From contig JAAZKR010000074.1 of NCBI GenBank assembly GCA_012799725.1, positions 1-49,229 on the forward strand: a DNA stretch of 49,229 nucleotides, written 5' to 3'. Below, in pieces: positions 2,689 to 35,786 of the stretch; within the stretch, counting starts at the first letter, position 1, and each line of letters opens with the position of its first letter. A model generated the notes under the pieces. The model searched no databases and was not told where the DNA came from. It worked only from the letters and a program-made list of their open reading frames with translations. The position numbers and the translations under genes were made by a program. The DNA comes from Oligosphaeraceae bacterium. Lineage in GTDB: Bacteria; Verrucomicrobiota; Lentisphaeria; Oligosphaerales; Oligosphaeraceae.

Positions 2689-4073
2689 ATTTTGAGCACC
2701 CTGCCGGCCAAAATGTCGGCGGGCTCCAATAATTGTGCTTGCTCAGGCAATTCCCAATCGGAGCCGACTACCAGCAGCTTAATGGCCACGCCACGACTCC
2801 GCAACTTTTCAACAAATTCCTGACGGCATTGATCGTAGCCCAACAAGATGATAATGGCGCTGCCTAATCCGGCGATTTCACGCAGCAGTTCTTCGTCCAG
2901 CTCTTGCAGGCTGGGTCGGCGTTCCGGTTCTATTTGCGCCAGGCAGTCCAGTAGGCTCTCCAGCGCCGCGCCGCCTCTGCCCAGGCGCAGTCGGCGCACT
3001 TGCTTGCCGGCTGCGAATAAATCGATCAAGAATTCACTTTGCAGCATATATTCCGCGATGGAGGCGCATAGGCTCAGCGCCGCTTCCAGTTCAGGCACAA
3101 TGTGGTCCGGCCATAAATGCCCTTCGCCCTTGGTGAATTTCCAGGCTTGCTTGCATAATTGCCGCACAGAGAATTTTTGCGTGGGTTTTACTGGGTTGCT
3201 ATCTAAGATCAATGCGCTGCGGCTCATGAATTCATCTTGGAACTCACGTACCACCAGGCTGCCTTTTTTAGCGCTGCTTTGCCAGTGTATATAACGCGGA
3301 TTGTCGCCATCCTGAAAATCCCGGCAACCTTGAAATTCCATGGCTTCGCTGACTTTCATCACCCGTTGCAGGTCCCCACGCTGAAATTTCATACTTAGAG
3401 GCAGATTTATTTCGCGCAGCTTGTGGCGCTGGGGATGCACTAGCAGGCAGTCGTTGGTTTTTTTGCTTCTGTAATGTCTGGTAACAACGAAAGGGAAGTC
3501 AGACTGCGCGCCGCATTGACTGATGTAGTACTTGCCGCGCCGCCTGATGCTGAAAACTGCCTCAACATTCTTGCTTGTCTTGCCTGATAGCATATTGAGA
3601 GCTGCCGCCTGCCAACAATGCAGATGTTGCAAGCCCAGGCCGGGGTCAAGGAGTAGGTTCAGAGCCGGTAAACGGCGTAGATTCTGTACTTGATATGAGA
3701 TAACAAAGGGTTGCCCGGCACAAGCTCTCTGCGGCAGTTTGCGCCTGATGCTTAATTTGGGACGGAAAATCCAGCCCAATACAAAATCGCAGAATAACAA
3801 GGCCAGCAAAATGATTATGAATTGCCGCAGCTTGGCTTCAGGCATCATGATGCTATGCAAAAGAAATATGCTGCCCAAGGGTAGAATAAAAAGAGCAGGC
3901 AGACTGAAAAACCTGGTGCCACAGGCTAAAATCCACCAGAAACTAGCTATTGCCGGCGAACGGTAAACATCGCCATGCTGTCGCCGCACATAGCAACGCG
4001 GCCCATCCAAATAACGTGCCATCAGCCGGCCATAAATACGGCGTACGCTTTTATATATGCTGCGAATAAACAT
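2685..4073 (-). CDS. DUF58 domain protein (MoxR-associated, vWA-like)
   Basis: 462-aa ORF with N-terminal TM helices. It has the DUF58-typical segment IHWQSSAKKGSLVVREFQDE. It sits between a MoxR ATPase gene and a transglutaminase gene, which is the canonical operon order. Confidence 0.75.
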   Translation of the reverse strand: MFIRSIYKSVRRIYGRLMARYLDGPRCYVRRQHGDVYRSPAIASFWWILACGTRFFSLPALFILPLGSIFLLHSIMMPEAKLRQFIIILLALLFCDFVLGWIFRPKLSIRRKLPQRACAGQPFVISYQVQNLRRLPALNLLLDPGLGLQHLHCWQAAALNMLSGKTSKNVEAVFSIRRRGKYYISQCGAQSDFPFVVTRHYRSKKTNDCLLVHPQRHKLREINLPLSMKFQRGDLQRVMKVSEAMEFQGCRDFQDGDNPRYIHWQSSAKKGSLVVREFQDEFMSRSALILDSNPVKPTQKFSVRQLCKQAWKFTKGEGHLWPDHIVPELEAALSLCASIAEYMLQSEFLIDLFAAGKQVRRLRLGRGGAALESLLDCLAQIEPERRPSLQELDEELLREIAGLGSAIIILLGYDQCRQEFVEKLRSRGVAIKLLVVGSDWELPEQAQLLEPADILAGRVLKI

Positions 4074-4142
4074 GCCGAAAATTGATTGTGATGGACACGA
4101 AAACTTGGCGTAATCTGCGCAATTCGCAGATAAAACGGCGCA

Positions 4143-5069
4143 TTAGCGTGGCACCGGGGTTTGCTTGAGGATTTCTTCGATGACACCAATGGCGCTGGCG
4201 CCGGCGTACATTGCTTGAGGCTGCAAGACCAAGCGGTGGGCTAATACTGCGACAGCGAGCTTTTTCAGATCATCAGGCAGGACGTAGTCACGTGCGTCCA
4301 GATATGCGGCGGCTTGGGCGCAGCGATTCAGTGTCAAGGCGGCTCTGGGGCTGGCGCCCAAGGCCACGCGCTGATCGTCACGACTGGCGGTGATCAGACG
4401 CAATACGTACTCCAGCAAGCTTTTATCCATGTTGACTTTTCTGCATTCCTGCTGCAACCTGATGATATCATCACAGCTGAGCATCGCCGTCAGCTCCAGC
4501 ATAGGGTCTGTATGCAGTCGTTCCTGCATAAGCCGCATTTCATCTTCTTCCTGCGGGTAGCCCAGCATGAGCTGCATGGCGAAGCGGTCCAATTGTGCTT
4601 CAGGCAGCGGATAGGTGCCCTGATATTCAATGGGGTTTGCAGTTGCGATTACCATGAAGGGGCGTGGCAAGGCGTAGGTCACGCCGTCGTCGGAGACTTG
4701 TTTTTCACTCATGGCTTCCAGCAGCGCTGATTGTGTTCTCGGGCTGGCGCGGTTGATTTCGTCAGCCAGTATTATATTGGCAAATAGTGGGCCTTTGCGG
4801 AAACGAAGTTCACCGCTTTTCGGGTTATAGACATTGCTTCCTACTATGTCGCTGGGCAGGAGGTCCGGGGTGAATTGTATGCGCCTGAAGCTGGCGTTAA
4901 GTGAGGCAGCCAAACTCTTAGCCAGTGTGGTCTTGCCCACGCCGGGCACGTCGTGCAATAAAACATTGCCGCCGGCTGCCAGAGCCGTCAACAGCAGCTC
5001 GACTGTCTCAGATTTGCCGCAAATCACCGTGTTGAGACGTTGGCGTAATAACGCGATTTTTCCTAGCAT
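4143..5069 (-). CDS. MoxR-family AAA+ ATPase
   Basis: 308 aa. Walker A is HDVPGVGKTTLAKSLA and Walker B is the MoxR signature ILADEINRASPRTQSALLEAM. A GGGGG Shine-Dalgarno-like run lies just upstream of the ATG. Confidence 0.9.
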   Translation of the reverse strand: MLGKIALLRQRLNTVICGKSETVELLLTALAAGGNVLLHDVPGVGKTTLAKSLAASLNASFRRIQFTPDLLPSDIVGSNVYNPKSGELRFRKGPLFANIILADEINRASPRTQSALLEAMSEKQVSDDGVTYALPRPFMVIATANPIEYQGTYPLPEAQLDRFAMQLMLGYPQEEDEMRLMQERLHTDPMLELTAMLSCDDIIRLQQECRKVNMDKSLLEYVLRLITASRDDQRVALGASPRAALTLNRCAQAAAYLDARDYVLPDDLKKLAVAVLAHRLVLQPQAMYAGASAIGVIEEILKQTPVPR

Positions 5070-6228: not shown

Positions 6229-7524
6229 ATGTTGCTGGTTTATCGTGATGACGACAGCTTTGCTGAAAAAATAAAACCTTTGCAGAACAGAACTGCATTC
6301 TCCGGCGATGTAGACCGGGCCGTACGTGAGATACTGGAACAGGTGCGCAAAGAAGGCGATCGCGCCCTGGTCAGACTTGCTGAAAAATTTGACCAAGTCA
6401 AATTGAATCCGGCAGAATTTCTGGTCGATGCCCGGGAATTCGCGGCTGCTGCTACCCAGGTTGATGAAGAGACAAAAGCGGCTATCAGGCTGGCGATCGC
6501 ACAAGTGCAGGACTTTGCCGTGCAGAAAAAGCCGAAAAACTGGTTCTACAGTCCCAGAGAAGGCGTAATGCTGGGTGAACAATTTTCACCTTTGCAACGG
6601 GTTGGCTGCTATGTGCCCGGAGGCACTGCGCCACTTGTTTCCACCGTGATACACACAGTGGCTATTGCCGCTGCGGCTGGTGTCGAGGATATTGTGGTGA
6701 CTACACCGCCGGGCAAGGACGGCAGCGTCAATGCCGCTTTGCTTTATGCCTGCAAGCAGGCCGGAGCTAGCCGAGTCTACAGGCTTGGCGGCGTCTATGG
6801 CATTGCGGCCTTGGCTTATGGCACCGAGAGTGTGGAAAAGGTTGAGAAGATAGTGGGTCCGGGCAATGCCTATGTCACGGCAGCCAAACGCCTGGTATAT
6901 GGCGAGGTGGCGCTTGATCTGGTGGCTGGTCCCTCAGAAATCATGATTATCGCTGATGCCAGCGCGAATCCGGCTTTTATTGCTGCGGACATGCTTTCTC
7001 AGGCTGAACATGGCTCCGGTCGTGAACAGGCCGTGTTGCTGAGCACCTGTGCGGATTTGTTGACGCAAGTGAAGGCCGAACTCTCTTCCCAAAGCAAGCG
7101 ATTGAGCCGTTCAGATTGCGTAGAGCAAGTTTTGGAGAATGGTGTTTTTCTCATTGAGGTAAAAGACCTTGATGAGGCGGCTTCTCTGGCCAGCCAGTAT
7201 GCAGCGGAGCATCTTGAGCTTATGGTGGCTGAACCCGAAAAATTGGCACCTAAGATTAAGGCCGCCGGCGCTATTTTCATGGGACATTGGAGCCCGGAGC
7301 CATTGGGCGATTTTGTCGCCGGCCCCAGCCATGTGCTGCCTACCGGTGGCAGCGGTAGGTTCTTTAATGGGCTGAGTATAGAAATGTTCTTCAGACGCAG
7401 CAGCCTGCTGCGTTACGAGAAAGAAGCCTTGTTCAAAGAAATCCCAGCCATACTGAAATTTGCCGAGAATGAGGGACTGGATGCACATGGAAAGAGCGCA
7501 GCTATCCGGAAAAAATGCCAATGA
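6229..7524 (+). CDS. hisD: Histidinol dehydrogenase
   Basis: 431 aa with the HisD hallmarks GPGNAYVTAAKR, SQAEHG and GDFVAGPSHVLPTGG. Confidence 0.93.
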   Translation: MLLVYRDDDSFAEKIKPLQNRTAFSGDVDRAVREILEQVRKEGDRALVRLAEKFDQVKLNPAEFLVDAREFAAAATQVDEETKAAIRLAIAQVQDFAVQKKPKNWFYSPREGVMLGEQFSPLQRVGCYVPGGTAPLVSTVIHTVAIAAAAGVEDIVVTTPPGKDGSVNAALLYACKQAGASRVYRLGGVYGIAALAYGTESVEKVEKIVGPGNAYVTAAKRLVYGEVALDLVAGPSEIMIIADASANPAFIAADMLSQAEHGSGREQAVLLSTCADLLTQVKAELSSQSKRLSRSDCVEQVLENGVFLIEVKDLDEAASLASQYAAEHLELMVAEPEKLAPKIKAAGAIFMGHWSPEPLGDFVAGPSHVLPTGGSGRFFNGLSIEMFFRRSSLLRYEKEALFKEIPAILKFAENEGLDAHGKSAAIRKKCQ

Positions 7525-8069: not shown

Positions 8070-9857
8070 ATGTATTTTAATTTTCAACGAGACTTGGCCG
8101 TTTTTCTGCAAAATGAGTATGGTGTCCAGGATTTAGAAGTGCCGGTAGAGCTTTGTCCGCCGGAATTTAGCGGAGAGCTTACCATTTCTTGCTTCGTATT
8201 GGCCAAACAGCTTAAGCGCAACCCCATGCAGCTGGCGCAGCAGGCCGGGGAATTTCTAAGCAGTCATCCGGACATTCTAGGCGTCGAGGTAGTCAAGGCC
8301 TTCGTTAATCTGAGTCTGGAAACCTCCGCGCTTATGCGTGATTGTGTGGCGGACGCTGCGGCGCTGCATGCTCGTACGCTGCTGCCGGCTGCGGAGTGCC
8401 GGAAGATACTGATTGAGTTTTCCGCTCCCAATACCAATAAGCCACAACATCTTGGACATGTGCGCAACAATTGCATAGGTATGGCCAGTGCCAGTATTCT
8501 GGCCAGGGCAGGGCACGAGGTGATTCGCGTTAACTTGGTTAACGATCGCGGCATACATATCTGCAAGTCTATGCTGGCTTACCAACGTTTTGGTGCTGGC
8601 TGTACCCCGGAAACGGCAGGCAAGAAGGGAGACCATCTGGTTGGTGATTTCTATGTGCGCTATGATCAGGAATTCAGAAAGCAAATCGAAGAACTGCGCC
8701 AGAAAGACGCAAGCTTGCGCGAAAAAGATGAAGATGAGCTGTTCTTGCAGACCGAGATAGGCCGCGCTGCACAGGAGATGCTGCTGCAATGGGAGCAGGG
8801 CAATGAGCAGGTATATCAGCTTTGGCAGACAATGAACAGCTGGGTGTTGGCCGGCTTTGAACAGACATATAAACGCATGGGCGTGGAATTTGAACATACT
8901 TACCTGGAAAGCCAAACCTATAAATTGGGCAGAGATATCATTATGGAGGGCTTGCAAAAAGGGGTGTTTACCACACGTCCGGACGGCGCAGTGGTCATCG
9001 ACTTTGAAGAGCCAAGCTTAGGCAGCAAGGTAGTCTTGCGCAGTGATGGCACAAGCGTATATATCACGCAGGATATAGGCACTACCTTGCTGAAGCAAAA
9101 TGATTATAATCCAGATCGGCAAATCTGGGTGGTCGGCGATGAGCAGAAATACCATTTTCAGGTGCTTTTTGCCATACTTAAGGCGCTGGGCTACGAATGG
9201 GCCGAACAGCTTACACATATGTCGTACGGCATGGTCAATTTGCCCAGCGGCAGAATGAAAAGCAGAGAAGGCACCGTGGTGGATGCCGATGATCTTTTCG
9301 ACCTGCTCGAGGAATTGGCCGGCGAAGCTACTGCTCAACGCAACCAAGAGCTGCCGCCCGAAGAACTCAAACGTAGAGCGCAAACCATCAGCATGGCGGC
9401 ACTTAAGTTTATGTTGCTTAAAGTGAATCCCAAAACTACCATGCTTTTTGACCCGCAGGCCTCAATCAAATTTGAGGGCGATACCGGCCCCTATGTCCTT
9501 TATGCCTATGCGCGTATAGCCTCCATGCTGCGTCGCGCTGAAGAAGAAGGGCAGACGGACAAAACCTGCCTGGACTGGAGCCTGCTGAATAGCGCCAGCG
9601 AAAAGAAATTAGCGTTGCGTTGCGCTATGTTCCCGGACGCCCTGCATAAGGCAGCTGATGAGCTGGACAGCTCCGTCTTGGCCGCTTATCTCTTGGATTT
9701 GGCCAAGGATTTTAGCAGCTTCTACAAACAGTGCTCGGTGTTGAATGCAGAGACGCCACAGCTGAGACAAACCAGATTGGAACTCAGTGAAAGAGTCAGA
9801 GAAATTATCGCTGATGGACTTAATACGCTGACCATAGAAACACTGGAAAGCATGTAG
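8070..9857 (+). CDS. argS: Arginine--tRNA ligase
   Basis: 595 aa. The class I HIGH motif appears as NTNKPQHLGHVRN. The ArgS-type body includes GDEQKYHF and the anticodon-binding C-terminus ends ...LTIETLESM. Confidence 0.93.
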   Translation: MYFNFQRDLAVFLQNEYGVQDLEVPVELCPPEFSGELTISCFVLAKQLKRNPMQLAQQAGEFLSSHPDILGVEVVKAFVNLSLETSALMRDCVADAAALHARTLLPAAECRKILIEFSAPNTNKPQHLGHVRNNCIGMASASILARAGHEVIRVNLVNDRGIHICKSMLAYQRFGAGCTPETAGKKGDHLVGDFYVRYDQEFRKQIEELRQKDASLREKDEDELFLQTEIGRAAQEMLLQWEQGNEQVYQLWQTMNSWVLAGFEQTYKRMGVEFEHTYLESQTYKLGRDIIMEGLQKGVFTTRPDGAVVIDFEEPSLGSKVVLRSDGTSVYITQDIGTTLLKQNDYNPDRQIWVVGDEQKYHFQVLFAILKALGYEWAEQLTHMSYGMVNLPSGRMKSREGTVVDADDLFDLLEELAGEATAQRNQELPPEELKRRAQTISMAALKFMLLKVNPKTTMLFDPQASIKFEGDTGPYVLYAYARIASMLRRAEEEGQTDKTCLDWSLLNSASEKKLALRCAMFPDALHKAADELDSSVLAAYLLDLAKDFSSFYKQCSVLNAETPQLRQTRLELSERVREIIADGLNTLTIETLESM

Positions 9858-9980
9858 CGGGTTCTAGAACGCAGCGTGAAAATCAGCGCCAGCCGTGTCA
9901 TCTTCAGACAGACCCGGCTGAAAATCACCATGCTGTGGCACCCTCCCAGCTTCTTGTTTTTTAGGAAAGATTTTTACTTT

Positions 9981-10079
9981 ATCCGCAGATTTACTCAGAT
10001 TAGCGCAGTTTTCTTATCTTAGGAGCGCGTTTTCAAAAGTGGTCCCTAAAAATCTGCGGCATCTGTGTAATCTGTGGAT
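9981..10079. repeat. Inverted pair of GCAGAT-word elements
   Basis: atccgcagatttactcagattagcgcagtttt (9981-10012) faces aaaaatctgcggcatctgtgtaatctgtggat (10048-10079). The reverse complement of the second is atccacagattacacagatgccgcagattttt. The pair lies in the argS-lnt intergenic region. Confidence 0.7.
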
Positions 10080-10169
10080 TGAGTCTTTCAACTGGGTTGC
10101 GGACGGTCAGTCCGCGCCAAGTTTCTTGCGTTTTCTGCGGTTAAAAAATAGAATTTCTGTTTTAGTTTC

Positions 10170-11867
10170 ATGTCCAGTATTGCTTCGGAATCTGATTTAC
10201 GCGCCGACGAGCAGGCTGTCGGTACGCCGGCCATCCCGCCTACTTGGTATTTTATTGCTTCACTGATTTCCGGGTTATTGCTCAGTGCCTGCTTTCCTCC
10301 TTTGAGCTGGAGTTTTCTAGTTTGGCTGGCATTTATTCCCTTGCTGCTTATTCCACCGCCGTCTTCCTGGGGACTTCGCTTGCTGGTCGGTTATTTTTGG
10401 GGCTATGTGCATGCGGCCAGTTCGCTGCTTTGGCTCAATGAGGTGGGCTTTGGTGCCGGCTGGTTATTGTCTCTGTACTGTGCTCTATATCCCATGCTGT
10501 GGTACTTTCTTTTCAGCGCGGCCACTTGGTGGCTGCGACAGAGTCCCGCACCCGAATACTCCGGTGCCGGTTTGCTGTACATACATGCATTGCCACGCAC
10601 GATATTTCTGTGTTTTTTCGCTGCATCCAGTTGGTGTGCGCTGGAGTGGCTGCGTTCCTGGCTGTTCACCGGCTTCCCCTGGAATCAACTGGGCATCAGC
10701 CAATATCAATGTGTCTCATTGTTGCAAAGTGCGGCCTATCTAGGCGTCTATGGACTTTCTTTCCTGATTGTATTTGTCAATATGAGCCTGAGCGTGGAGT
10801 TCTGTCAGGCATTGCGGCGCAAACTGGCTCAAAAGGGCAGGCGTTTCACTTGGCATCTGCTGCTTTGTGTTCTGCTTTTTGTGCCCGTGCTCTGCTGGAA
10901 TATGAATGCCAAAATGGAATTTAACGAAGAAAGTGAGCAGCTCATGGCTTTGGTAGTTCAGGGCGATATCCCACAGTGCCGGAATTGGACCGAGCAAGAG
11001 TTTCAACAGGCCTTGCAGGTCTATACCGGCCTGACCAGAGAGGAAGCGCTGCTGGAGCCGCGCCCTGATTTGGTCGTCTGGCCTGAGTCGGCCGTGCCGG
11101 CCGCCATAGACTACCCGGAATACGCCGAAAGTCTTCGCCAGCTTCAGGATTTTACCCAAACACCGTTGTTGTTGGGGGCGACTAACTATAGGCAAGACCC
11201 GGTTGATCCCGAAGAATACAACTTGTTCAATAGCGCATTTTTACTCGATGCCAAAGCTAGAGTGATCAATTATTATGACAAAATACACCCGGTGCCTTTT
11301 GGGGAATACGTGCCCGGAAGCAAGTATTGGCCCTGGTTGGTTGAGCTGATAGGCATGGGCAGAGACCTGAGTTCAGGTTCCAAATATACCGTTTTTGATA
11401 TGCCAAAAGGCGCCAAGGCAGGGGTGAATATCTGTTTTGAAGATGTCTTCCCGGAAATCAGCCGACGCTTCACGCAGCGCGGTGCCAATCTGCTTTTCAC
11501 TATTACTAATGACTCCTGGTATAACCAAAGCGCCGGTTCCAAGCAGCATCTCAGCCATGTGGTTTTTCGTGCTGTGGAAAATCGTCGTCCCCTGCTGCGT
11601 TCTGGTAGCAATAGCGATACTTGTATGATTTCACCACGTGGTGAAATACTGGGAATTATGCGCGATCCTAAAAGCGGCAGCTACTTCACACGGGGTGCTA
11701 TGCGCTTTGCATTGCCGGTGCGGGATGACTGGGGAGAAACATTTTATACCAGATATGGCAATCTTTTTGCTGCTTGCTGCGTTATATTCACAACGCTAAG
11801 CTGTGCTGCCCTTTTCGGAACATGGTTTAATCGCAAGAAAAAACTGTTCGAGGAAATCAGCGCATGA
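10170..11867 (+). CDS. lnt: Apolipoprotein N-acyltransferase
   Basis: 565 aa with a polytopic N-terminal half followed by a CN-hydrolase domain. The Glu-Lys-Cys triad context is visible as VVWPESAVP, YDKIHPVPFGEY and VNICFEDVFPE. Confidence 0.85.
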   Translation: MSSIASESDLRADEQAVGTPAIPPTWYFIASLISGLLLSACFPPLSWSFLVWLAFIPLLLIPPPSSWGLRLLVGYFWGYVHAASSLLWLNEVGFGAGWLLSLYCALYPMLWYFLFSAATWWLRQSPAPEYSGAGLLYIHALPRTIFLCFFAASSWCALEWLRSWLFTGFPWNQLGISQYQCVSLLQSAAYLGVYGLSFLIVFVNMSLSVEFCQALRRKLAQKGRRFTWHLLLCVLLFVPVLCWNMNAKMEFNEESEQLMALVVQGDIPQCRNWTEQEFQQALQVYTGLTREEALLEPRPDLVVWPESAVPAAIDYPEYAESLRQLQDFTQTPLLLGATNYRQDPVDPEEYNLFNSAFLLDAKARVINYYDKIHPVPFGEYVPGSKYWPWLVELIGMGRDLSSGSKYTVFDMPKGAKAGVNICFEDVFPEISRRFTQRGANLLFTITNDSWYNQSAGSKQHLSHVVFRAVENRRPLLRSGSNSDTCMISPRGEILGIMRDPKSGSYFTRGAMRFALPVRDDWGETFYTRYGNLFAACCVIFTTLSCAALFGTWFNRKKKLFEEISA

Positions 11868-11961
11868 AAATATCGGGCCTGCGGTTTTGTCGGGTAGATG
11901 GACTTGTTAGAACGAGACAGTTAATGAACTTGGCGGATATTATTTCCAGTGTCAGCTTAAA

Positions 11962-12768
11962 ATGCAAGAACAAAGAGCATATCTGGATGTGAAGGGGCGC
12001 AAACTCTATTTCGCCCTATACTTGCCGGCACAAAAAAAGGCCGATTGCGCCCTGCTAATGGCCGAGCCTTTCGGCGAAGAAAAGCGCAGCTGCTCCCGCA
12101 TGCTGCATAGATTGGCGAAAAAATTACAGCAGGAAAATATTGCTGTGCTAAAATTCGATTTCAGTGGCACTGGCGACAGCGCCGGTACTGCTGCTATTGC
12201 GGAATGGCGACATTGGCAGGAGGAACTCGATAAAGCGCTGGAATTCTTGCAACAACAAAGCCAGGCAAAGCAGCTGGCGCTGCTAGGGCTGAGAGCCGGC
12301 GCGCTATTGGCGGCAGAATTAGCTTCCAGGAAAAATGTGGATAAGCTATTGCTGGGCGAGCCCATCTTGTCCGGCAGTGAGCTTCTTGTTGAACTGGAGA
12401 AACGACAAAAAATAAAGGAGGCTATTTCGGGCAGCCCGGTTAGCGATCCTGCTGAGGACAGCTGGCGCAAAGGTGAAAATGTAGATTTTGCCGGTTTTGA
12501 GATCAATCCGGATTTTGCAGCGCAACTAAACCAGGCAGAATTGTTGGCCTATCTGCAAAAACTCAATCCGGCTACTGCCGTGTTGCTGCTGCGAGTCAGT
12601 GCTGTAAATAAATTCCCGTCCGCTTGGTTGCCCTGCATAGAGGCGCTTGAGCGGCATCCTGGCTCGCAAGCCTTGATCGTCAAGGATAAACCCTTTTGGG
12701 GACAACTGGAGTACTACGAATCCGACGCCGTCTTGCAACCTATGCTGGAGTTTTTACACGGCTCTTGA
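11962..12768 (+). CDS. Alpha/beta-hydrolase fold protein resembling exosortase-A-associated hydrolase 2 (Arg at nucleophile position)
   Basis: 268 aa. The segments AEPFGEEKRSCSRM, KFDFSGTGDSAG, LLGLRAGALLA and LLLGEPILSG match my recollection of the TIGR03101-type family. The nucleophile elbow reads G-L-R-A-G (12286-12300). Confidence 0.6.
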   Translation: MQEQRAYLDVKGRKLYFALYLPAQKKADCALLMAEPFGEEKRSCSRMLHRLAKKLQQENIAVLKFDFSGTGDSAGTAAIAEWRHWQEELDKALEFLQQQSQAKQLALLGLRAGALLAAELASRKNVDKLLLGEPILSGSELLVELEKRQKIKEAISGSPVSDPAEDSWRKGENVDFAGFEINPDFAAQLNQAELLAYLQKLNPATAVLLLRVSAVNKFPSAWLPCIEALERHPGSQALIVKDKPFWGQLEYYESDAVLQPMLEFLHGS

Positions 12769-12792
12769 GTGGCTCCATTCAAGAAGATTTTT

Positions 12793-12815
12793 ATCCGCAG
12801 ACAGATGCAGATTTT
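12793..12815 (+). repeat. GCAGAT-word intergenic repeat (single copy)
   Basis: atccgcagacagatgcagatttt lies 15 nt upstream of the ATG at 12830. Confidence 0.55.
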
Positions 12816-12829
12816 CAGGATAATGACCA

Positions 12830-14020
12830 ATGACAAAAAAGTTTTTCATTGCTGTTTTGATATCTTGTCTTTGCTGGCTTTGTGCTGAAGAAATGCCACG
12901 TCCCGGCTTGGAAGGCCTGGCTTGGGAATACGGTGTTTCTGATACGAATGAACAGGCTTTGGTGATGGCACTCAAGGAACCTTTGTTACAGGAACTAGAC
13001 GTAGAGACCGCATTGCAACATTGGTTTGACGGAAGGCTTTTGCATTCGCAAAACAAACTGGAGGCGGCGCAGGAAAAATGGCGGCAGGGGCTGTCTTTAC
13101 TGACAGAGTTAAAACCATTGCCGCCGGTGATACATACTGCCGCTCCCAAGGCTGAATTTAGTGTTTTAAGCGAGTTGAAACTTGCAGAATTTCCCGATGT
13201 GCAGGCGCAAGTAGTATTTTGGCAAGTCAATAATCTGCGTCAATATGGCTTGGTACTGGCATTGCGGGAAAAAACTCCCGGTCACAAATATCCACTTGTG
13301 CTTTATGGGCATGGTGCAGCTTTCGGCCTGCCTAATAGCTTCTGCAACTGGTTGGCGCGGCACCTGGTGCGCCGAGGATATGTCGTTATTGCTCCTGCTA
13401 TGCGTGGTGAACCACTTTTTCAGATACAGATACCTATCAACGGCAAAGAGTTGGTTTGCGATGGAGGAATCGAGAATTTAGACGGCGAAGTAGATGATTG
13501 CCTGGCTATGCTTGACGCTGCCTGGAAGCTGCCCTATGTCAGAAAAGACGAATTTGCCATGTTGGGTCATAGTTTTGGCGCCGGGGTTGCCTTGCTGGCA
13601 GTAGCCAGGATGGGGGAGGCTGCCAAGGCGGCAGTGAGTTATGATGCTTGGCTGGTGAATCCACAGCGTTACTACTGGGATCGCATGCGTCGCGGCGCTA
13701 ATAACTGGCTATCATGGGAGAGCTACTGCAATCAACCTGTGAAAGAACAGTTGCGCGGATTGCAAAAGCGCAGTCTTCTCCATCACGTTGAGCAGATCAG
13801 GGCGCCCTTGCTGCTTTTCATGGGTGGTGGTTATGATGGCAGTGTATTTCATCTTAGTCACGATGATCTCTGCAAAAAGCTTGCAGCGCATAACAAGCAG
13901 TATCGTTATGTACTCGTGCCCGGTGGCGACCACAACTTTGTGTTACGCGACAATGCGTCGGCGCGTCATGCACTGTCCATACAGCAGCAATTTCTACAGG
14001 AGCATTATCCTGCTCGCTGA
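12830..14020 (+). CDS. Secreted/lipoprotein alpha/beta hydrolase (dienelactone hydrolase / S9 peptidase-like)
   Basis: 396 aa. The N-terminus MTKKFFIAVLISC has a lipobox-like L-I-S-C. The canonical nucleophile elbow is MLGHSFGAG and the C-terminal His context is VPGGDHNF. Confidence 0.7.
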   Translation: MTKKFFIAVLISCLCWLCAEEMPRPGLEGLAWEYGVSDTNEQALVMALKEPLLQELDVETALQHWFDGRLLHSQNKLEAAQEKWRQGLSLLTELKPLPPVIHTAAPKAEFSVLSELKLAEFPDVQAQVVFWQVNNLRQYGLVLALREKTPGHKYPLVLYGHGAAFGLPNSFCNWLARHLVRRGYVVIAPAMRGEPLFQIQIPINGKELVCDGGIENLDGEVDDCLAMLDAAWKLPYVRKDEFAMLGHSFGAGVALLAVARMGEAAKAAVSYDAWLVNPQRYYWDRMRRGANNWLSWESYCNQPVKEQLRGLQKRSLLHHVEQIRAPLLLFMGGGYDGSVFHLSHDDLCKKLAAHNKQYRYVLVPGGDHNFVLRDNASARHALSIQQQFLQEHYPAR

Positions 14021-14081
14021 TCACATCGCTCAGGCTAGGCGGCTGCGAGTCGAAATAGCCTCTCATGCCAAACAAGTTGCT

Positions 14082-15035
14082 ATGTCTATAGAAAACCGGA
14101 TTACTTTCGATCAGGCTTTTAGCGAAGAGCCATTTACTTTTTCCTGTGGCACCTTGCAGTTGCGTGGCATACTCAGCTTGCCGCTGAAACAGGAAATGCG
14201 GGGCGCTCTGGTCTGCTCACATGGTTGGAGCGGTACGCGTTCCGGGCCGGTGGGCCTGCTTACGGATTTGGCGCGCAGTCTGGCAAGCAAAGGTTACGCC
14301 GTATTGCGATTTGACTACGCCGGCCGCGGTGAAAGCGATGGTGCCGGGCTGCAAAGCAGCCTCTTGACTATGGCTGACAACTTGGAGGCGGCCAGCAAGG
14401 CCATAAAAAAACATCTAAACTGTAATGAATTACATTATTTGGGGCTTTGTTCCGGAGCTAATGTTGTTATAGGTGCTCTGAAAAGGTTGCCCGAAGCAAA
14501 GTCGCTGCTCCTGCTCTCAGTATATCCTTTTTCAGATGGTGACAGCTTTTCGCGTGACCTGAACCGCCTTGCTTATTTGCTCAGGGTTTACTGGCAAAAG
14601 GCATTGCGCAAAGAGACCTGGAAGCGGCTATTTGCCGGTGATGTGCGTCTTACTCAAGTTTTTCGCGTACTTTTTGCTCCTCTATTGAAAGGCAAGTCCA
14701 ATCAAAAAAAAGAAGGTGCTGCTACAACCGGCAGTGATAATACCAAGCCTGATTTCAGCGCGCGCAGTTCCAAGGCGACCAAAAGCGAAAGCCGCTTGCA
14801 ACAAAAGGCAGCGCCACAGTCGCACCTCAAGAATCTACGCGCCGACCTGCCGGTGCTTATGCTCTATGGTACAGCTGATCCGGATGCCAAAAGCGCAGCA
14901 AAGTACTTCGGCGAATATGCCGAACAAGAACAACTGCCATTGCAAATCGACTATTTAGAAGGCGCAGACCACAATTTTACTTCACAGAAATTCCGGCAAG
15001 AACTCAAAGAAAGAGTACAGGAGTTTTTCAGATAG
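14082..15035 (+). CDS. Alpha/beta-hydrolase fold protein resembling exosortase-A-associated hydrolase 1 (Cys at nucleophile position)
   Basis: The ORF track begins at 13788, but that start overlaps the previous gene by 233 nt. The ATG at 14082 (MSIENRITFDQAF) removes the overlap. The segments LRFDYAGRGESDG, YLGLCSGAN (elbow G-L-C-S-G, 14442-14456), YWQKALRKETWKRLFAGDV, LYGTADPD and GADHNF resemble the TIGR03100-type family. Confidence 0.6.
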   Translation: MSIENRITFDQAFSEEPFTFSCGTLQLRGILSLPLKQEMRGALVCSHGWSGTRSGPVGLLTDLARSLASKGYAVLRFDYAGRGESDGAGLQSSLLTMADNLEAASKAIKKHLNCNELHYLGLCSGANVVIGALKRLPEAKSLLLLSVYPFSDGDSFSRDLNRLAYLLRVYWQKALRKETWKRLFAGDVRLTQVFRVLFAPLLKGKSNQKKEGAATTGSDNTKPDFSARSSKATKSESRLQQKAAPQSHLKNLRADLPVLMLYGTADPDAKSAAKYFGEYAEQEQLPLQIDYLEGADHNFTSQKFRQELKERVQEFFR

Positions 15036-15083
15036 CTTTATCGGCATGCCAGGTGTTTCCGGCGGTTGCTCCTTTTCATTGAA

Positions 15084-15181
15084 CCGCCAAGAACGCCAAG
15101 AACACCAAGAGCGCCAAGAGCGCCAAGGTCGGCTTTACGGAATGGCGTCGTATAACCGCCAAGAACGCCAAGAACGCCAAG
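15084..15181 (+). repeat. CGCCAAGAA-word tandem repeat clusters
   Basis: ccgccaagaacgccaagaacaccaagagcgccaagagcgccaagg is followed by ataaccgccaagaacgccaagaacgccaag. The period is 9 nt. The clusters lie in the convergent intergenic region between the hydrolase gene and the AraC gene, and they generate the spurious ORF NRQERQEHQERQERQ. Confidence 0.8.
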
Positions 15182-15206
15182 TTTATTACAAAACTTCGCA
15201 CATCAC

Positions 15207-16109
15207 CTATTTTTTTGCAGTCAAGCGCCGCCGGAAATTTTTAGGTGAAAGCTGATGGTATTTTTTGAAAGATGTAGAAAAATATAACTGATTTTTGTAG
15301 CCGAGGGCAGCGGCAATTTCTTTGATGGAGCGTTCACTGTGCCGCAACATCCACTCAGCCATAGTCATGCGTTTATTGGTCATATAAGCCAAAGGGGTAC
15401 AATGGCAATGATCCCTAAACATACGATAAATCGTTGCCTTGCTCACATGAAGATTCCTGGCCAAATCCTCAACCGTTAGCATCTGGTTTAGGTTATTGTC
15501 TATCATTTCCATCAACAACAGCATTTTTTCAGGTATGGGCGCACTGCTTATTTCCTTGACCAGATGTAGCAGAAGTTCATAAGCGGCTGCATCTGCCTGT
15601 CGCAAAGAGGCGCTGTCTCCCGTTAAGAGCAATTTTTCTATTGTCATGAATTTTGCTTCTATTTCATCAGGATCACTCAATTTGATGAAGGCGCAATCAT
15701 TCAGTCGCAGAGATGTGACGATGGCTTCGAGCAGCTGCCCATTAAGAATAATAGTCCGTTTACGAGCCCTTGTGGTTGTACACATCATCTCAATATCATG
15801 ATGCAGATGCACTATGAAAAGACAACCAGGTGGGGCAGCATAATGCACGCCATTGTCCGCAAATAGAAATTCTCCTTCTATGACTAGTTCAAGCGCAAAG
15901 GTGTTCGAATCACGACGATATCGGAAGACATTATCCCCCCAATATCCGATTCCAGCTGTATAGACTGATAGCACTGGGGCTACTTCAGGCTCACGATACA
16001 AAAAACGATGCCTTGGCAACCTGCCTTCATTGCATCCTCCCAAGATACTGCTTCCTTCAGATTCTATTATCTTGGATTTACGCAACAGGCATTCTATTTT
16101 ATCCTGCAT
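15207..16109 (-). CDS. AraC-family transcriptional regulator
   Basis: 300 aa. The C-terminal double HTH includes LTVEDLARNLHVSKATIYRMFRDH and IKEIAAALGYKNQLYFSTSFKKYHQLSPKNFRR. The N-terminal ligand domain is cupin-like. Confidence 0.85.
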   Translation of the reverse strand: MQDKIECLLRKSKIIESEGSSILGGCNEGRLPRHRFLYREPEVAPVLSVYTAGIGYWGDNVFRYRRDSNTFALELVIEGEFLFADNGVHYAAPPGCLFIVHLHHDIEMMCTTTRARKRTIILNGQLLEAIVTSLRLNDCAFIKLSDPDEIEAKFMTIEKLLLTGDSASLRQADAAAYELLLHLVKEISSAPIPEKMLLLMEMIDNNLNQMLTVEDLARNLHVSKATIYRMFRDHCHCTPLAYMTNKRMTMAEWMLRHSERSIKEIAAALGYKNQLYFSTSFKKYHQLSPKNFRRRLTAKK

Positions 16110-16278
16110 GTCTATTTCCTTCTTTCCCAGTTTTCCATGTCTTATTATTTCAAATACCTTTGAGAGTATTTTGAATATAATACCTTCTTTATTGCCTTGA
16201 TTACTATGAAAACAGATATAATATTAATATATATCAAAACGAAAAACAACCTGATTCAATATCCCTTGTGGCGTAGTA

Positions 16279-17853
16279 ATGCAGCAAATGAAAAAATATG
16301 CAAGCCTGAAAGGCGGACAACTTTTTGCATTTTCTGCTGTCGATGGAACAACTGACTGGTACAATGGACTTGTCGGACGCATCATCGGCAACTGTCTGGA
16401 GTTGAAATTGCCACACGATGGCGGTTGTTTGCTTTTTCCTGACACTCCAGACGGCATATATTCCGATTGCCTTGTAGCCGGTCATACCCGCGCGGCATTT
16501 GCTGACGCTTTTAATATCATTATTGAAGGTGATGTGCTTCCATTAGGGCTCCCCGCCGGCTATGTTTGCAAACAAGCAGGCAATACAACGATTATCGCAG
16601 CAGAAGGCCATCTGAATACAGCATGGCTAAATGCAGATTTCAATGATATCTTTAATTCCCGGAAGCAATGGCTGGATAATCTTCACCTGGAAGCAAGCCC
16701 TGTTCTACGACGTGCAGTCTCACAACTCAAATCACAGCTCAACTCTCCTCAAGGGCTTATTAAACATAAGTGGACGACTCCCGACCGATGGCCCCATCGC
16801 AACATGTGGCTTTGGGATTCGGTCTTCCATGCATTGGGTTTGCGGCATATTGATACTTGTCTGGCACAAGAGACATTACGGGCTGTTTTCGATGTGCAGG
16901 ATGCCGCCACTGGCTTCATCCCACACATGGGCACCCCCGACGGACGCAGCAACATCACACAACCTCCTGTTCTTGCATATGGCATGCGCAAAATTTGGGA
17001 ATTGGACGGTGATTTGGATTTCATCGCAGAATTCTATCCACGGAACAAAGCTTTTTTGGAGTGGTGCGTTACAAATCGGGATCAGGATGGCGAAGGACTG
17101 TTGGAGTGGTTCATTGACGGACAACCCTTCTGCCGGTGTGGCGAAAGTGGCATGGACAACTCAATCCGTTTTGATGAAGCAGTTCTGCTGGATGCGCCTG
17201 ACTTTAACGCGTTCTACGCACAGGAATGTGGCATTATGGCTCAATTTGCACGTATGCTGAATCTGCCACAGGACGAAATTTTTTGGATAAGCCGCCAGAC
17301 TGCCGTAAACCAGCGAATGAATGAACGCTTATGGGATGAAAAACATGGTCTCTACTGTGATTTCAATCCAAAGACCAGAGAGTTTTCACCTGTTCTATCC
17401 GCCGCCGGTTTTCTTCCTCTTATCAGTGGTGCCCCTACTCCTGAAATGGCCAGCAAAATGGTCGCTCTTCTTCAGGATTCAAACAAATTTGCCGCTCCGC
17501 TCCCAGTTCCATCCATTGCTTTGGATGCGCCAGGCTGGAGCCGGGATATGTGGAGGGGACCCACATGGGTCAATATCAACTTACTGATAGCTGAAGGGCT
17601 TGCCAACTACGGCTATTCTTCGTTGGCAGAGGAAATCACAGCCAAAACCTGCCATGCCATTGAAAAGTACTTTGACCGATATGGTACATTCTTCGAATAC
17701 TACGATGCCCTGGAACAGCTCCCCCCAGTCAAGCTTGACAGAAAAGGGCCTAATGACATCTTCAAAGTTTACCAGCAACCATTACGAGACTATGGCTGGA
17801 CAGCGACACTATACATCGATACATGCATGAAAAATAGGAGACAATCATTTTGA
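16279..17853 (+). CDS. Cytoplasmic (alpha/alpha)6-barrel glycoside hydrolase, GH63/GH37-like
   Basis: 524 aa with no signal peptide. Motifs typical of GH63/trehalase-like six-hairpin enzymes are present: [18 protein letters not shown] and [13 protein letters not shown], plus a C-terminal [11 protein letters not shown]-type segment. The family call is from motif recognition only. Confidence 0.6.
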
Positions 17854-17893: not shown

Positions 17894-18628
17894 ATGAACA
17901 GCCTGAAAAAAACAACTTTTACTTTGATTGAATTGCTGGTGGTAATAGCCATCATTGCTATTTTAGCGTCAATGTTGCTGCCTGCTTTAAGCAAGGCCAG
18001 AGAAAGGGCACGTACCATCACCTGCATCAACAATCAGAAACAAATTGGCCTTGCGTTTGTCGGTTACCAGGACGATAACGTTGATTACTTCCCACAGTAT
18101 TTGGGCATCATCCACGGACAGACGTTAGAACGAACCTGGGCCTTGAATTTTCTTCTGCTCGGATATGTTGATAGTGGTCATAGCAGCAAGGCAAAAATAT
18201 TCTTCTGCCCTTCTTTTTACCCAACTGGTGGAAAAAGCCAGGGCGATAATCAGCTGAGCCATATTGGATACGGCTATAACTGGCAATATGTGGGCGGCGG
18301 CCAGGCGGCCTTCTCACTGGCGGAAGCACCCGATCGAGGCAAAAGATGCGCAAAAGTCAGTGAGTTCAAATCGCTGTCAAGTCTCTATGTTATGATGGAC
18401 GCTAAATACGTGCTGCAAGACATAGGGTGCTATCGTGTTTACTACGCCACAACCAATGATGACGGCAGCGGAATGCCTGCGGTTCGCCATGCGCAAAGAC
18501 TAAATGTCCTTTTCGGAGACATGCATGTAACCACAGAAAAAGTCGTCAATTTACTGAATCCTTGGCCTGAGCTGCAAGCGCTTTACACTTCTCCATGGTC
18601 CAGTGGCCGCAATGGGCGCGTTGATTAA
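17894..18628 (+). CDS. DUF1559-type pseudopilin-like protein (prepilin-type N-terminal methylation domain)
   Basis: 244 aa. The N-terminus is [40 protein letters not shown]. The C-terminal H-X9-DG-like motif is [19 protein letters not shown] Shine-Dalgarno sequence lies at 17881-17885. Confidence 0.85.
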
Positions 18629-18674
18629 ATCAGTTTTTCTCCATCAGCTTCCCATTCATAAAAGGGTAGGAAAC

Positions 18675-21600
18675 ATGAATCGCCAGATATTCTTCTTGGC
18701 CTTGCTTGTGGTCTTTTCGACCCATGCTGTACAGTTGAGTGATGCAGAGAAAATGTCCCTTCCCTATGCCACTGGGAAAGCCTTTATGCTGGGGGATACT
18801 GGCTGGCGCATACATGCAGGCGATGTCAAGGGATTTGAAAAAAAGGATTTTGATGACAGTAGCTGGTTCTTAGGCAATGTTTCCAGAAGTGCCAGCGGTC
18901 AGGGTATTTCAGGAAGCCCTTGGATATTGTACCGTAAAGAATTCAGCATTTCGCCGGAACTGGCAGGAAAAACGATTCTGCTGGATCTGGGTTTTATCTC
19001 TTTTTATGACGAGGCATACATAGATGGCATGCTCATCGGCAGTTATGGCACCTATCCAAAAGGTATCACCGGTTCCTCATGGATGAGGCGCCGGTATATT
19101 CTCCCGGATGCTTTGGCAGCAGGCACAGGCACGCATACGCTGGCTGTCCGAACCTACGCAGGTTACGCTTCTGGCATGTACAATGGTTCACCCTATCTCT
19201 GCGAACTAAAAAGACATATTTATCCAAAGTACATTCTCAAAGAACCAAGGTCACTGCAATGGAATCTTTCTGATGCTCAACATCTTAATCATTTTTTTCC
19301 GGGCACCAGGACATACCTGCATCCTAGATTCACCACTCTGGGCTCTCCAGGGACCATGCAACTCCAGGCGACATTGCAGGGATCAGACGGTAAAAACACC
19401 ATACTTCCCACACGTACAATCAGGCTGGTAAACGATGAGTGGAGTGATTGTGAGCCAATACCTGTTGTGTTGCCTCAAAAGCTGGGACGCTTCTCCGTCA
19501 ATCTGACGCTGACAAATGAGCATGGCATCATTAGCTGGGAACAAACACTATATGGGCGATGCAGGAACAGGCAGATATTCGAGATACCCGTTGACACGAC
19601 TTTGACGCAACTTCAGTTCCCTTTGGATGTTTCCAGCATTGCCAGTGGCAGTTTCGGCCCAAGGCATTTCAAGGCCGGCAAACTTATACATGATTTCGAT
19701 ATCCCTGACACTCGGGGGACGCTGGCGTTTTCAGTTCGTCCTTCCCCCAAGGCACCCCTAATACTCCACACTCACGTCAAACCAATGCCTAAGCCTATTC
19801 CTACTACAGAATTGCTGGCGGCAAAGGGCGCTACTTCATACGATGGTTTCCAGGATGCTTGGCTTATGGGGAGTGTGACCTCACCCCAAGCAGGCAGGTT
19901 GAACGCCATAAGCACTGTTGGAAATTGGACTAAGCTGTGCTACAAATATCAATATGAAAATATCCGCAAATTTGATTTTACCATCAGCGCCATTTCTCCG
20001 GCTTGGCGTTTGGAGACAGATTCCGAGACCTTGCGCATCTTCGATGGTATTGAAGACAATGGCGTTGGACTCCCACAATTGATAGCAATGGAATGCGATG
20101 GGGTTCCATTGATTCACCCACTGAAGACTCCTCTTGACACCAGCAAAATGAGTGCCAACTGGTTTCTTGTCTCATTTAACGGCAGCAATGGCTTCGATGC
20201 TTTCGACATCCCCTGGCTTTTTGTGCTGCAACATCGTCCGGCTTCTATCGCCATCAATAGTGGTGCACTGGAACTCGATTATGGCTGCCCGGCGGGAACG
20301 ATTCTTGCCATGCCGCTTTACGGTGTCACTTTGCAAGAAGCGCAAGTAACGGCATCATGGTCAAATGGCCTCCCTGAGGACGTCATCCAACGCTGCCGGG
20401 CCTGGTCCAGGATTCTTGCCAATGCTCCAGATACCTTAACACGGAAAGCTGCCGTGGACTTCCAGCAGGACGCCTTAAGTTATGAGGACTGCTTTACCTA
20501 TTTGCCCCTGAACGACGAATGGAGCACTATTCCAATAACCATAGCTCCAATCGCACCACTGCTGCCTCCCACCTTAATGGCAGCCAAGCATTTTTCAGGT
20601 GCTATCAGCCATCCCGCCCAGGATTTGGATTACGCAACCCTTCATGGTCCCTTGCATGCAGTTATTGGTTCAAAAGTAATTACGCAATTCAAGGGGCTGC
20701 TTCATTTTATCCCGGAAGTCAGGCAAATCACATTAAAGGAACAAAACGCTGACTCTGTCTCATTGAAGAAGGAACTGTCGTCTATCTTGGAAAAACATTT
20801 CCATATCATGCAGAAACACCCTTGGCCTGACACGGTCTGGCGCGGCAAATATGTGCCTGGCAATCAGGAGCCAGCATTCACAAACATTCTACTGACCCTC
20901 CCCTATCTTTCAAATGACCTTGCCCAACGCATTCTGGATGAATATAAAAAAGAGGTGGAAAACTATCTCCTCTATGATGGCGTCCCAAGCGATGACTTTG
21001 CAGAGAAACTGCTGCCCAAGCTCAGAAAACGCCCGGTTTCAGTCTCACTTACCACGCCCACGGGACTGAAGCTGACCACTTTCGTTCCCCAAGAAACCGA
21101 TTATGGTATTGATTCCTGCTGCTTTGAAGCTCAGCTATGCTATATGCTCTGGAGCTATGCGCATCACAGCGGCGAATGGGAGTTCGTAAAACGCAGCTGG
21201 CCACGTATCCTTGAATCAGCCAACCTGCTGCCGAACGCATATAGCTGGCCCATTTGCTGTAGCTATGACACCTTTTCCGGCATCCGTGTCGGCAATGGGC
21301 TTCAGGAAACCGGAGTCATGCATGCAGGATTCTGTGCCATAGCAAGGATGGCACATAAATTTGGGGATATCCAATTACGGGACAAAGCCAGTTATTTTGC
21401 AGCAATGCAGCTCGTGGCGCTGAATGGTGCCATGTCGATGAATGCCTATCTGCGGGAAAGACGTCCGCTTCTTCCGGAAAGCACACAGAACGGACTCTGC
21501 GAATTTAGCGAGTATTACCGCCAGTACCATTATGTGGAATTCAATGAAAACGGCGGTTTTACGCAGCATGTCATGCATGCGGAAGACACATTGAACAGTC

Positions 21601-27901: not shown

Positions 27902-27952
27902 GTGGAAACCCCATGATTCATTGTTCAAGTTACGGCGGATCATCAAAATCTG

Positions 27953-33313: not shown

Positions 33314-33335
33314 ATAACGATGACATTTTTCAGGA

Positions 33336-35663: not shown

Positions 35664-35786
35664 CTTAAACCCCTTTTTGCAGCTAGTATCCAAAATATTT
35701 CAAAACCGGCCCTTGCATCTTTTAATTGTCATATTATACTATACCATAAGACAAATAAAAAGCAAGGGGCAAATCAGAGATAAATC
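35664..35786. promoter_or_regulatory. Divergent promoter/operator region between the GRE operon and the PMI-GH2 operon
   Basis: This is a 123-nt AT-rich spacer between divergently oriented starts. A 7-bp inverted repeat, cccttgc (35710-35716) and gcaaggg (35762-35768), flanks an AT-rich core. No experimentally known operator was recognised. Confidence 0.4.

Follow-up and report, generated by a model that had tools for sequence, protein, structure and literature searches.

A Three-Gene Hydrolase Cassette of Lentisphaerota Related to the Exosortase A-Associated Hydrolase 1/2 Pair

Do three alpha/beta-hydrolase genes that lie directly downstream of an apolipoprotein N-acyltransferase gene (lnt) serve lipoprotein maturation, or do they form a system of their own? 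The question is raised by a stretch of 49,229 nucleotides from an Oligosphaeraceae bacterium (assembly GCA_012799725.1, contig JAAZKR010000074.1, positions 1 to 49,229, forward strand), referred to below as the window, in which the genes designated A, B, and C follow lnt. A first-pass annotation of the window had likened A and C to the paired hydrolase 2 and hydrolase 1 of exosortase A loci and had linked the whole group to lnt. The reading preferred here, with a probability of about 0.55, is that A-B-C is a diverged derivative of an acyl-thioester-handling hydrolase 2/1 pair that has been uncoupled from its acyl carrier protein (ACP) and organized as its own operon, with lnt as a mere neighbor. 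The four genes are as follows.

10170-11867, + strand: lnt, apolipoprotein N-acyltransferase (TIGR00546, LNT_N and CN_hydrolase); a neighbor, probably outside the module
11962-12768, + strand: gene A, hydrolase-2-like alpha/beta-fold protein of 268 aa, probable pseudoenzyme (TIGR03101)
12830-14020, + strand: gene B, secreted Ser hydrolase of the S9/dienelactone-hydrolase type, 396 aa (Pfam)
14082-15035, + strand: gene C, hydrolase-1-like alpha/beta-fold enzyme of 317 aa (TIGR03100)

A check of the open reading frames (ORFs) confirmed the four genes, their coordinates, and their common strand; the start of C is taken as the first ATG within the ORF at 13788-15035. The gap between lnt and A is 94 nt, while A-B and B-C are separated by 61 bp each, with no stop/start overlap in this genome. 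The lnt product is a genuine family member, scoring 293 bits against the TIGR00546 cut-off of 132.9 and harboring both Pfam domains. The window was also said to be free of exosortase, PEP-CTERM, ACP, and acyl-CoA/AMP-ligase genes; none of these, nor a decarboxylase gene, was found in the 49 kb.

Genes A and C: family ties and nucleophile positions

The best hidden Markov model (HMM) match of A is TIGR03101 (hydrolase 2, exosortase A system-associated) with an E-value of 1.7e-36 and 126.1 bits, the next family reaching 33 bits, and that of C is TIGR03100 (hydrolase 1, exosortase A system-associated) with an E-value of 1.6e-23 and 83.4 bits. Both matches are those predicted by the first-pass annotation, and all of the motifs it had quoted were located (PFGEEKRSCSR, DFSGTGDSAG, LRFDYAGRGESDG, and YWQKALRKETWKRLFAG). 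However, the scores lie below the curated cut-offs of 202.75 bits for TIGR03101 and 168.45 bits for TIGR03100, so that A and C stand closest to the two families without being members of them. Canonical proteins from a Methylomagnum contig and a metagenome contig pass these cut-offs, with 298 (297.8) and 208 (208.4) bits for hydrolase 2 and 325 (324.9) and 344 (344.4) bits for hydrolase 1. All Lentisphaerota homologues scored against the two models are likewise sub-threshold, at 81-141 bits. Since the two models are the best matches and yet the scores fall short of cut-offs that the controls pass, A and C are, by sequence comparison, a diverged subfamily and the closest relatives of TIGR03101 and TIGR03100.

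The proposed nucleophile of C is encoded by the codon tgt at 14448-14450, which specifies Cys123 within YLGLCSGANVV; a phmmer alignment to solved Ser hydrolases places this residue on the Ser of GLSMG (PDB 9pjb). Cys123 is kept in 120/120 homologues, canonical members included, Asp266 (14877-14879) in 119/120, and His297 (14970-14972) in 118/120. When trio-type and ACP-linked proteins are aligned with three canonical hydrolase 1 proteins, Cys123, Asp266, His297, Tyr170, and Trp180 are invariant, and the canonical proteins share the elbow WGLCDAA. C thus carries the hallmarks of hydrolase 1, namely a Cys-Asp-His triad and the cap motif Y(W/Y)..(K/R)L....(F/T)W.(K/R)L, together with an HGW oxyanion motif. 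The AlphaFold2 model of C has an overall pLDDT of 84.3, with a disordered Lys/Ser-rich loop at residues 211-238. A cap helix at approximately residues 156-178 is amphipathic and cationic (hydrophobic moment ~0.55, net charge +3 to +5), which would suit a membrane-associated acceptor, although the helix could equally pack on the core. Neither a signal peptide nor a hydrophobic segment was found in C.

In A, the equivalent position is occupied by Arg111, encoded by aga at 12292-12294 within LLGLRAGALLA and aligned by phmmer with the Ser of GFSLGG (PDB 9pir). Arg111 is kept in 119/120 homologues, again with canonical members included, and the Methylomagnum hydrolase 2 likewise has Arg in its elbow, GLRTGA. 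Glu40 (12079-12081), which lies in the PFGEE segment that replaces the HG oxyanion motif, is kept in 120/120 homologues, and Trp246 (12697-12699), in PFW, in 117/120. The Arg elbow, PFxEE, and PFW are the hallmarks of hydrolase 2, and A has all three. By its residues, A does not look like a catalytically competent alpha/beta hydrolase: the elbow bears Arg, and the homologue alignment contains no invariant or nearly invariant His. Trp246 would instead take the position of the catalytic His297 of C, in the loop after the last core strand. With nucleophile and oxyanion motif lost and no conserved His, A is probably a pseudoenzyme. It is modeled with a canonical alpha/beta fold (pLDDT 94.8), and no signal peptide, transmembrane segment, or other hydrophobic segment was found in it. 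The nearest solved folds to both A and C, identified with Foldseek, are feruloyl esterases, TTL lipase, and PET46, all of the Hydrolase_4 type.

A and C are paralogues (hhalign profile-profile probability 99.4). The profile-profile alignment pairs LLGLRAGALLA with YLGLCSGANVV, setting Arg111 opposite Cys123, and PFGEEKRS with HGWSGTRS. It therefore agrees with the codons and with the alignments to the Ser of G-x-S-x-G in placing Arg and Cys at the nucleophile elbow, as the first-pass annotation had done, and its suggestion that one partner is probably non-catalytic and the other of the Cys type is the natural reading of these two residues. The substitutions are not peculiar to this locus. Because Arg111 and Cys123 are kept in 119 and 120 of 120 homologues, respectively, canonical proteins included, they define both families, as GLRTGA and WGLCDAA illustrate.

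Four natural fusions join an N-terminal A domain to a C-terminal C domain in one ORF, with both hallmarks intact (L numbers denote loci of the survey described below).

L039, Lentisphaeria: GARFGS and GMCSGG
L057, Armatimonadota: GLRLGA and GICSGG
L078, Verrucomicrobiota: ACP gene upstream
L081, Kiritimatiellae

Since such fusions arose independently in four phyla, they provide a Rosetta-stone argument for a complex of A and C, be it physical or functional.

The A-B-C unit, its carrier protein, and lnt

To survey synteny, a profile of C was scanned against one genome per GTDB species, which yielded 80 loci of at most 21 kb each, and the ORFs of these loci were classed by HMMs of A and C together with the B and Lnt proteins of the window. 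The architectures are distributed as follows.

A-B-C: 29 loci, 7 with lnt upstream
ACP-A-C: 14 loci
A-C: 7 loci
A-C fused in one ORF: 4 loci
B-C without A: 7 loci, 4 of them on truncated contigs
C alone: 19 loci

The named homologues are mostly from Lentisphaerota (Victivallales, Oligosphaeraceae, Lentisphaeria), with a few labeled Kiritimatiellota or Verrucomicrobiota. In most trio loci the stop and start codons of B and C overlap by 4 bp, and in several those of A and B overlap as well; such overlaps indicate translational coupling of the trio. Three of the loci lack A next to B-C although several kb of sequence precede the pair (L026 5759-7912, L027 3758-5944, L050 3002-5348); here A has been lost or lies at another place in the genome. 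In L026, B-C is preceded by clpP, clpX, and a gene whose sequence resembles that of an N-acetylmuramoyl-L-alanine amidase.

B matches Peptidase_S9 (PF00326) with 53.2 bits and DLH (PF01738) with 42.1 bits, above their gathering thresholds of 22.6 and 21, respectively. Its nucleophile motif is GHSFG, with Ser248 encoded by agt at 13571-13573, and it shows weak matches in the PDB (E ~1e-4) to the catalytic domains of acyl-aminoacyl peptidase and dipeptidyl peptidases. The sole hydrophobic region is an N-terminal signal peptide at ~12830-12889. In an alignment of 32 orthologues, this signal peptide is conserved and is followed directly by (A/G)GD(T/S)-VRPGLE, a ~120-aa domain with the motif ALQ.WFDGRL that has no database match, and, in all but three degenerate proteins, GHSFG and a C-terminal His motif, GDHNF or GGHNF. 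The B homologues listed are all full length, with 42-82% identity, and the named ones are all from Lentisphaerota or Kiritimatiellota; B thus looks like a clade-specific partner. The three degenerate orthologues (L034 5728-6990, L035 1707-2969, L053 5683-6987) form one subclade that has lost both the Ser and the His motif, with GLGRGA, GLGHGA, or GLGSGA in place of GHSFG, and the trio of this subclade would hold two pseudoenzymes.

The first-pass annotation was right to call B a canonical Ser hydrolase, and the lipobox-like string L-I-S-C that it pointed out is present in the window, with a similar string in the closest relative, L012. However, the lipobox ([LVI][ASTVI][GAS]C) is not seen at the N-terminus of nearly all of the other aligned orthologues. 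As the lipobox Cys is not conserved, a lipoprotein is unlikely and this assignment was rejected; a protein exported through signal peptidase I is the better reading of the sequences.

Outside the trio loci, the A-C pair often has a different partner gene. In 15 loci (14 A-C pairs and the L078 fusion), A is preceded, in most cases immediately, by an ACP gene; these loci span phyla of the Planctomycetes-Verrucomicrobia-Chlamydiae group, Armatimonadota, and other lineages. No ACP gene was found in any of the 29 trio loci. Since the relatives are ACP-linked, whereas the trio loci have B and no ACP, the clade of the window has lost the linked carrier protein and gained B. In three canonical loci, ACP, hydrolase 2, and hydrolase 1 occur in this order with overlapping genes, surrounded by genes for an AMP-dependent ligase, an Orn/DAP-type pyridoxal phosphate (PLP) decarboxylase, FemAB-like acyltransferases, DegT, AsnB, Wzy, Wzx, and glycosyltransferases.

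Loci of the Victivallis type (L063 185-9278, L067 172-7858, L073 383-9162) contain a second, ACP-linked A-C pair. The conserved cluster comprises one or more ketoacyl synthases (KS), the alpha and beta subunits of an E1 dehydrogenase, GT2, ACP, A, C, and GT4, and looks like a candidate pathway for an acylated glycan or a glycolipid. Between A and C, L067 has an AAA_14/DUF4143 ATPase gene and L073 has two glycosidase-like genes.

How does lnt fit into this pattern? Two housekeeping genes precede it in the window.

6229-7524, + strand: hisD (Pfam Histidinol_dh)
8070-9857, + strand: argS (Pfam tRNA-synt_1d)

Among the 23 trios with at least 2 kb of sequence 5' of A, lnt is upstream in 6 and absent from 17. 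The trio of the cultured Oligosphaera ethanolica DSM 24202 (L020) is without lnt. Elsewhere, the genes upstream of the trio encode a RIO1 kinase, ABC transporters, a BNR sialidase, or ClpP and ClpX with an amidase. The trio moves as a unit without lnt, and the conserved unit is A-B-C, not lnt-A-B-C. The lnt-linked trios with enough flank all have argS, and hisD wherever the flank reaches: the order is hisD-argS-lnt-A-B-C in L016, L017, L021, L024, and L029 and argS-lnt-A-B-C in L015, L013 being too short to tell. Because lnt always sits within this block of unrelated housekeeping genes, its adjacency points to inherited gene order rather than to a functional tie. The survey that the first-pass annotation had called for therefore bore out a conserved trio and went against its functional association with lnt, and lnt linkage was set aside as the main functional signal. 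In L024 the lnt match (3135-4892) is split over two ORFs, 3135-4583 and 4635-4892, which may reflect a frameshift or a pseudogene.

The window sequence turns up in biogas-fermenter metagenomes, and two biogas metatranscriptomes contain low-depth contigs (~1-4x) over lnt, A, and B, with C not covered. Of the junctions, only lnt-A is crossed, by one contig in each run (11816-12028 and 11852-12084). These contigs are compatible with read-through from lnt in this organism; the depth is too thin for the operon to be delimited, and DNA carry-over is possible. A promoter and terminator scan of 9800-16300 gave promoter-like sites below, and terminator-like sites within ~1.5 standard deviations of, shuffled expectation and was left out of the argument.

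The intergenic stretch at 9939-10215, from the argS stop to the lnt start, has a metatranscriptome contig depth of ~32-34x, compared with ~1-4x over the flanking genes. Many contigs match just part of it before passing into unrelated sequence; this pattern suggests either a highly abundant small RNA or an element present in multiple copies. Searches of the stretch gave no tRNA and no Rfam family at threshold, and within the window the 30-mer at 10050-10079 occurs once. Beyond the 3' end of C, before a convergent AraC-type gene, the 9-bp unit CGCCAAGAA is repeated in tandem at 15085-15127 and 15157-15181 (4.8 and 2.8 copies), and RNA contigs have a variant with a 1-base deletion at 15092.

Other parts of the window harbor abundant glycoside hydrolases and several further gene groups. 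On the - strand, a set of three genes (MoxR-type AAA ATPase, DUF58 protein, and transglutaminase-like protein) precedes GTP cyclohydrolase I at 502-5069, and 31596-35693 encodes a glycyl-radical enzyme resembling pyruvate formate-lyase with its radical S-adenosylmethionine activase, adjoining GntR and FGGY-kinase genes. Small proteins with a prepilin-type N-terminal methylation motif or DUF1559 are encoded at 17894-18628, 27953-28696, and 42098-42820, and each adjoins a very large ORF (18603-21893, 24905-27946, and 43318-47301, respectively) in which no Pfam match was found.

Readings of the locus

The preferred reading would work as follows. A-B-C would be an operon that stands on its own, with translational coupling, and that is kept throughout Lentisphaerota and in some Kiritimatiellota. 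C would be the catalytic subunit, in which Cys123 takes an acyl group by transthioesterification and delivers it to water or to an acceptor; since relatives of C are served by a dedicated ACP, the natural substrate class would be an acyl or aminoacyl thioester. A would be the dead paralogue and obligate partner of C, acting as a structural or regulatory subunit or as the binding site of an anionic ligand, and the invariant Arg, Glu, and Trp residues of A may serve to block the former active site or to hold an anionic group. The ancestral-type pair would have been fed by the dedicated ACP encoded just upstream, which has gone from the locus in the clade of the window. B, the gene inserted into the pair, may encode an enzyme for that class of substrates outside the cytoplasm, a tie to A and C that would go beyond the shared operon. 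The adjacency of lnt would reflect a gene order handed down within part of the phylum rather than functional coupling.

Several observations weigh against this reading. The metatranscriptome contigs that cross the lnt-A junction indicate some co-expression with lnt in this lineage, and the lnt-linked loci fall into two subclades in a rough neighbor-joining tree of C, so that lnt-A-B-C may be an old arrangement that has been lost repeatedly. A is not always encoded beside C: C stands alone in 15 loci with enough flank, and in some lineages (L026, L027, L050) B-C occurs with no adjacent A. The equivalence of Trp246 with the catalytic His is based solely on predicted secondary structure. A and C are predicted from sequence to be cytoplasmic but B to be exported, and a substrate shared by the three is not obvious. 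Finally, no characterized member of either family was found in the literature, and the proposed chemistry proceeds by analogy.

Alternatively, the trio could consist of ordinary carbohydrate or aryl esterases for polysaccharide degradation, with B acting extracellularly and A and C acting on imported oligosaccharides. The solved structures nearest to A and C are indeed feruloyl/cinnamoyl esterases, TTL lipase, and PET46; B is secreted, the window is rich in glycoside hydrolases, and fucosidase, sialidase, SASA, and glycoside hydrolase genes flank several loci. However, Lentisphaerota are rich in glycoside hydrolases everywhere, so these neighbors weigh little, and in many genomes the trio adjoins housekeeping genes instead. 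A, with neither a nucleophile, an oxyanion motif, nor a conserved His, probably cannot be an esterase, the invariant Cys of C is atypical among carbohydrate esterases, and the specific relatives of the two are ACP-coupled biosynthetic pairs; an esterase system is thus unlikely. We consider it distinctly improbable that the trio cooperates with Lnt as a module for the acylation or deacylation of lipids or lipoproteins, for instance in the editing or recycling of the acyl chains transferred by Lnt, B itself being a lipoprotein. This would account for the position of lnt 94 nt upstream of A on the same strand, an order kept in 7 species loci over two subclades, for the contigs that cross the junction, for a cap helix in C that could bind membranes, and for the L-I-S-C string of B. 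Against it stand the 17 of 23 trios with sufficient upstream sequence and no lnt, the argS (and, where reached, hisD) genes that accompany lnt as inherited gene order, the lack of the lipobox Cys in nearly all B orthologues, and the ancestral contexts of A-C, which are ACP-dependent glycan or exopolysaccharide (EPS) clusters and not lipoprotein maturation.

That the three genes are functionally independent alpha/beta hydrolases whose adjacency has no mechanistic meaning is barely credible. Such hydrolases are abundant, and C occurs alone (15 loci) and B-C without A (3 loci); yet the A-B-C order recurs in 29 species loci with differing flanks and with overlapping stop/start codons, A-C fusions arose independently in four phyla, and the B relatives listed are all full-length orthologues from lineages that carry the trio. 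A bolder proposal, which we hold to be quite unlikely, is a phylum-wide, two-compartment relay for envelope modification across the inner membrane, in which cytoplasmic C, held and regulated by its dead paralogue A through the Arg/Glu/Trp pocket, acylates a membrane carrier or a glycan or lipid precursor without a dedicated ACP, and the exported, periplasmic B completes or edits the product. If true, the relay would mean that the exosortase A hydrolase pair has given rise to a novel type of acylation system.

With A-B-C read as an ACP-uncoupled derivative of the hydrolase 2/1 pair, what is new is the architecture, a phylum-wide cassette that stems from an ACP-coupled pair of enzyme and probable pseudoenzyme and in which a secreted Ser hydrolase has been added and the ACP is gone. 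Since its families were defined, the hydrolase 1/2 pair has been a named yet functionally blank component of exosortase A polysaccharide loci. No functional study of either family was found in the full-text literature, the single passing mention being a TIGR03100-type gene in a Burkholderia EPS cluster, and searches of the PDB by sequence and by fold returned no solved structure for either family, only generic Hydrolase_4 esterases. The pair can now be recast as a paralogue couple, a Cys-Asp-His enzyme with an Arg/Trp-substituted, probably dead partner, fused in four phyla and normally fed by an ACP of its own, which gives the whole hydrolase 1/2 family a concrete and testable hypothesis. The Lentisphaerota trio offers a natural experiment on the loss of the ACP and the gain of a secreted hydrolase, and its presence in the cultured O. 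ethanolica strain makes genetics and biochemistry feasible. For annotation, neither adjacency to lnt nor the name "exosortase A-associated" should be read as function in these genomes.

Relation to known systems

The closest described system is the TIGR03101/TIGR03100 pair, two NCBIfam families of the type "hypothetical equivalog". It shares with A and C the same hallmarks, including PFxEE, PFW, and the cap motif YW..K...W..L..G, as well as gene order and strand. However, the scores of A and C reach approximately half of the curated cut-offs, and whereas the genes overlap in the three canonical loci examined, A and C are separated by B (1.2 kb). The context also differs, as no ACP, AMP-ligase, decarboxylase, or EPS genes lie alongside the trio in the window. 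Where canonical hydrolase 1 has GGPQYR and GLCDAA, C has HGWSG and GLCSG(G/A), and it carries an extra Lys/Ser-rich loop of ~40 aa.

The ACP-A-C modules of other genomes of the Planctomycetes-Verrucomicrobia-Chlamydiae group and of Armatimonadota, exemplified within the same phylum by Lentisphaerae GWF2 L061 and L063 and Victivallis L067 and L073, have the same hallmarks and similar sub-threshold scores. They differ from the trio in that A and C are adjacent or overlapping, ACP lies 5' of them, B is absent, and the pair is set in a KS-E1-GT2-GT4 cluster.

Enzymes of the Hydrolase_4 type (PF12146) with solved structures include the cinnamoyl esterase LJ0536 (3PF8), the feruloyl esterase of L. 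buchneri (7Z2X), TTL lipase (7Q4H), and PET46 (8B4U). They resemble A and C in fold (Foldseek TM-scores of 0.6-0.8) and in the N-terminal block of motifs (HG..., RFD..G.G.S, G-x-Nu-x-G). In contrast to the single-subunit Ser-His-Asp esterases of this group, C uses Cys and A has no conserved triad.

Dienelactone hydrolase (DLH) and the polyhydroxyalkanoate (PHA) synthase PhaC are Cys-His-Asp enzymes of the alpha/beta fold, the latter with the box G-x-C-x-G-G, and PhaC of classes III and IV requires a second subunit (PhaE or PhaR). C is like them in its triad chemistry and in its G-x-C-x-G-G/A box, a likeness that is a functional analogy only: no specific sequence relationship was detected, as C has no match to a PhaC HMM and its DLH Pfam match covers residues 245-305. 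B, in turn, has a G-x-S-x-G elbow (GHSFG) and a C-terminal His motif (GDHNF) as in the Peptidase_S9/DLH hydrolases; it differs from them in having no beta-propeller and in carrying its own ~120-aa domain behind a signal peptide.

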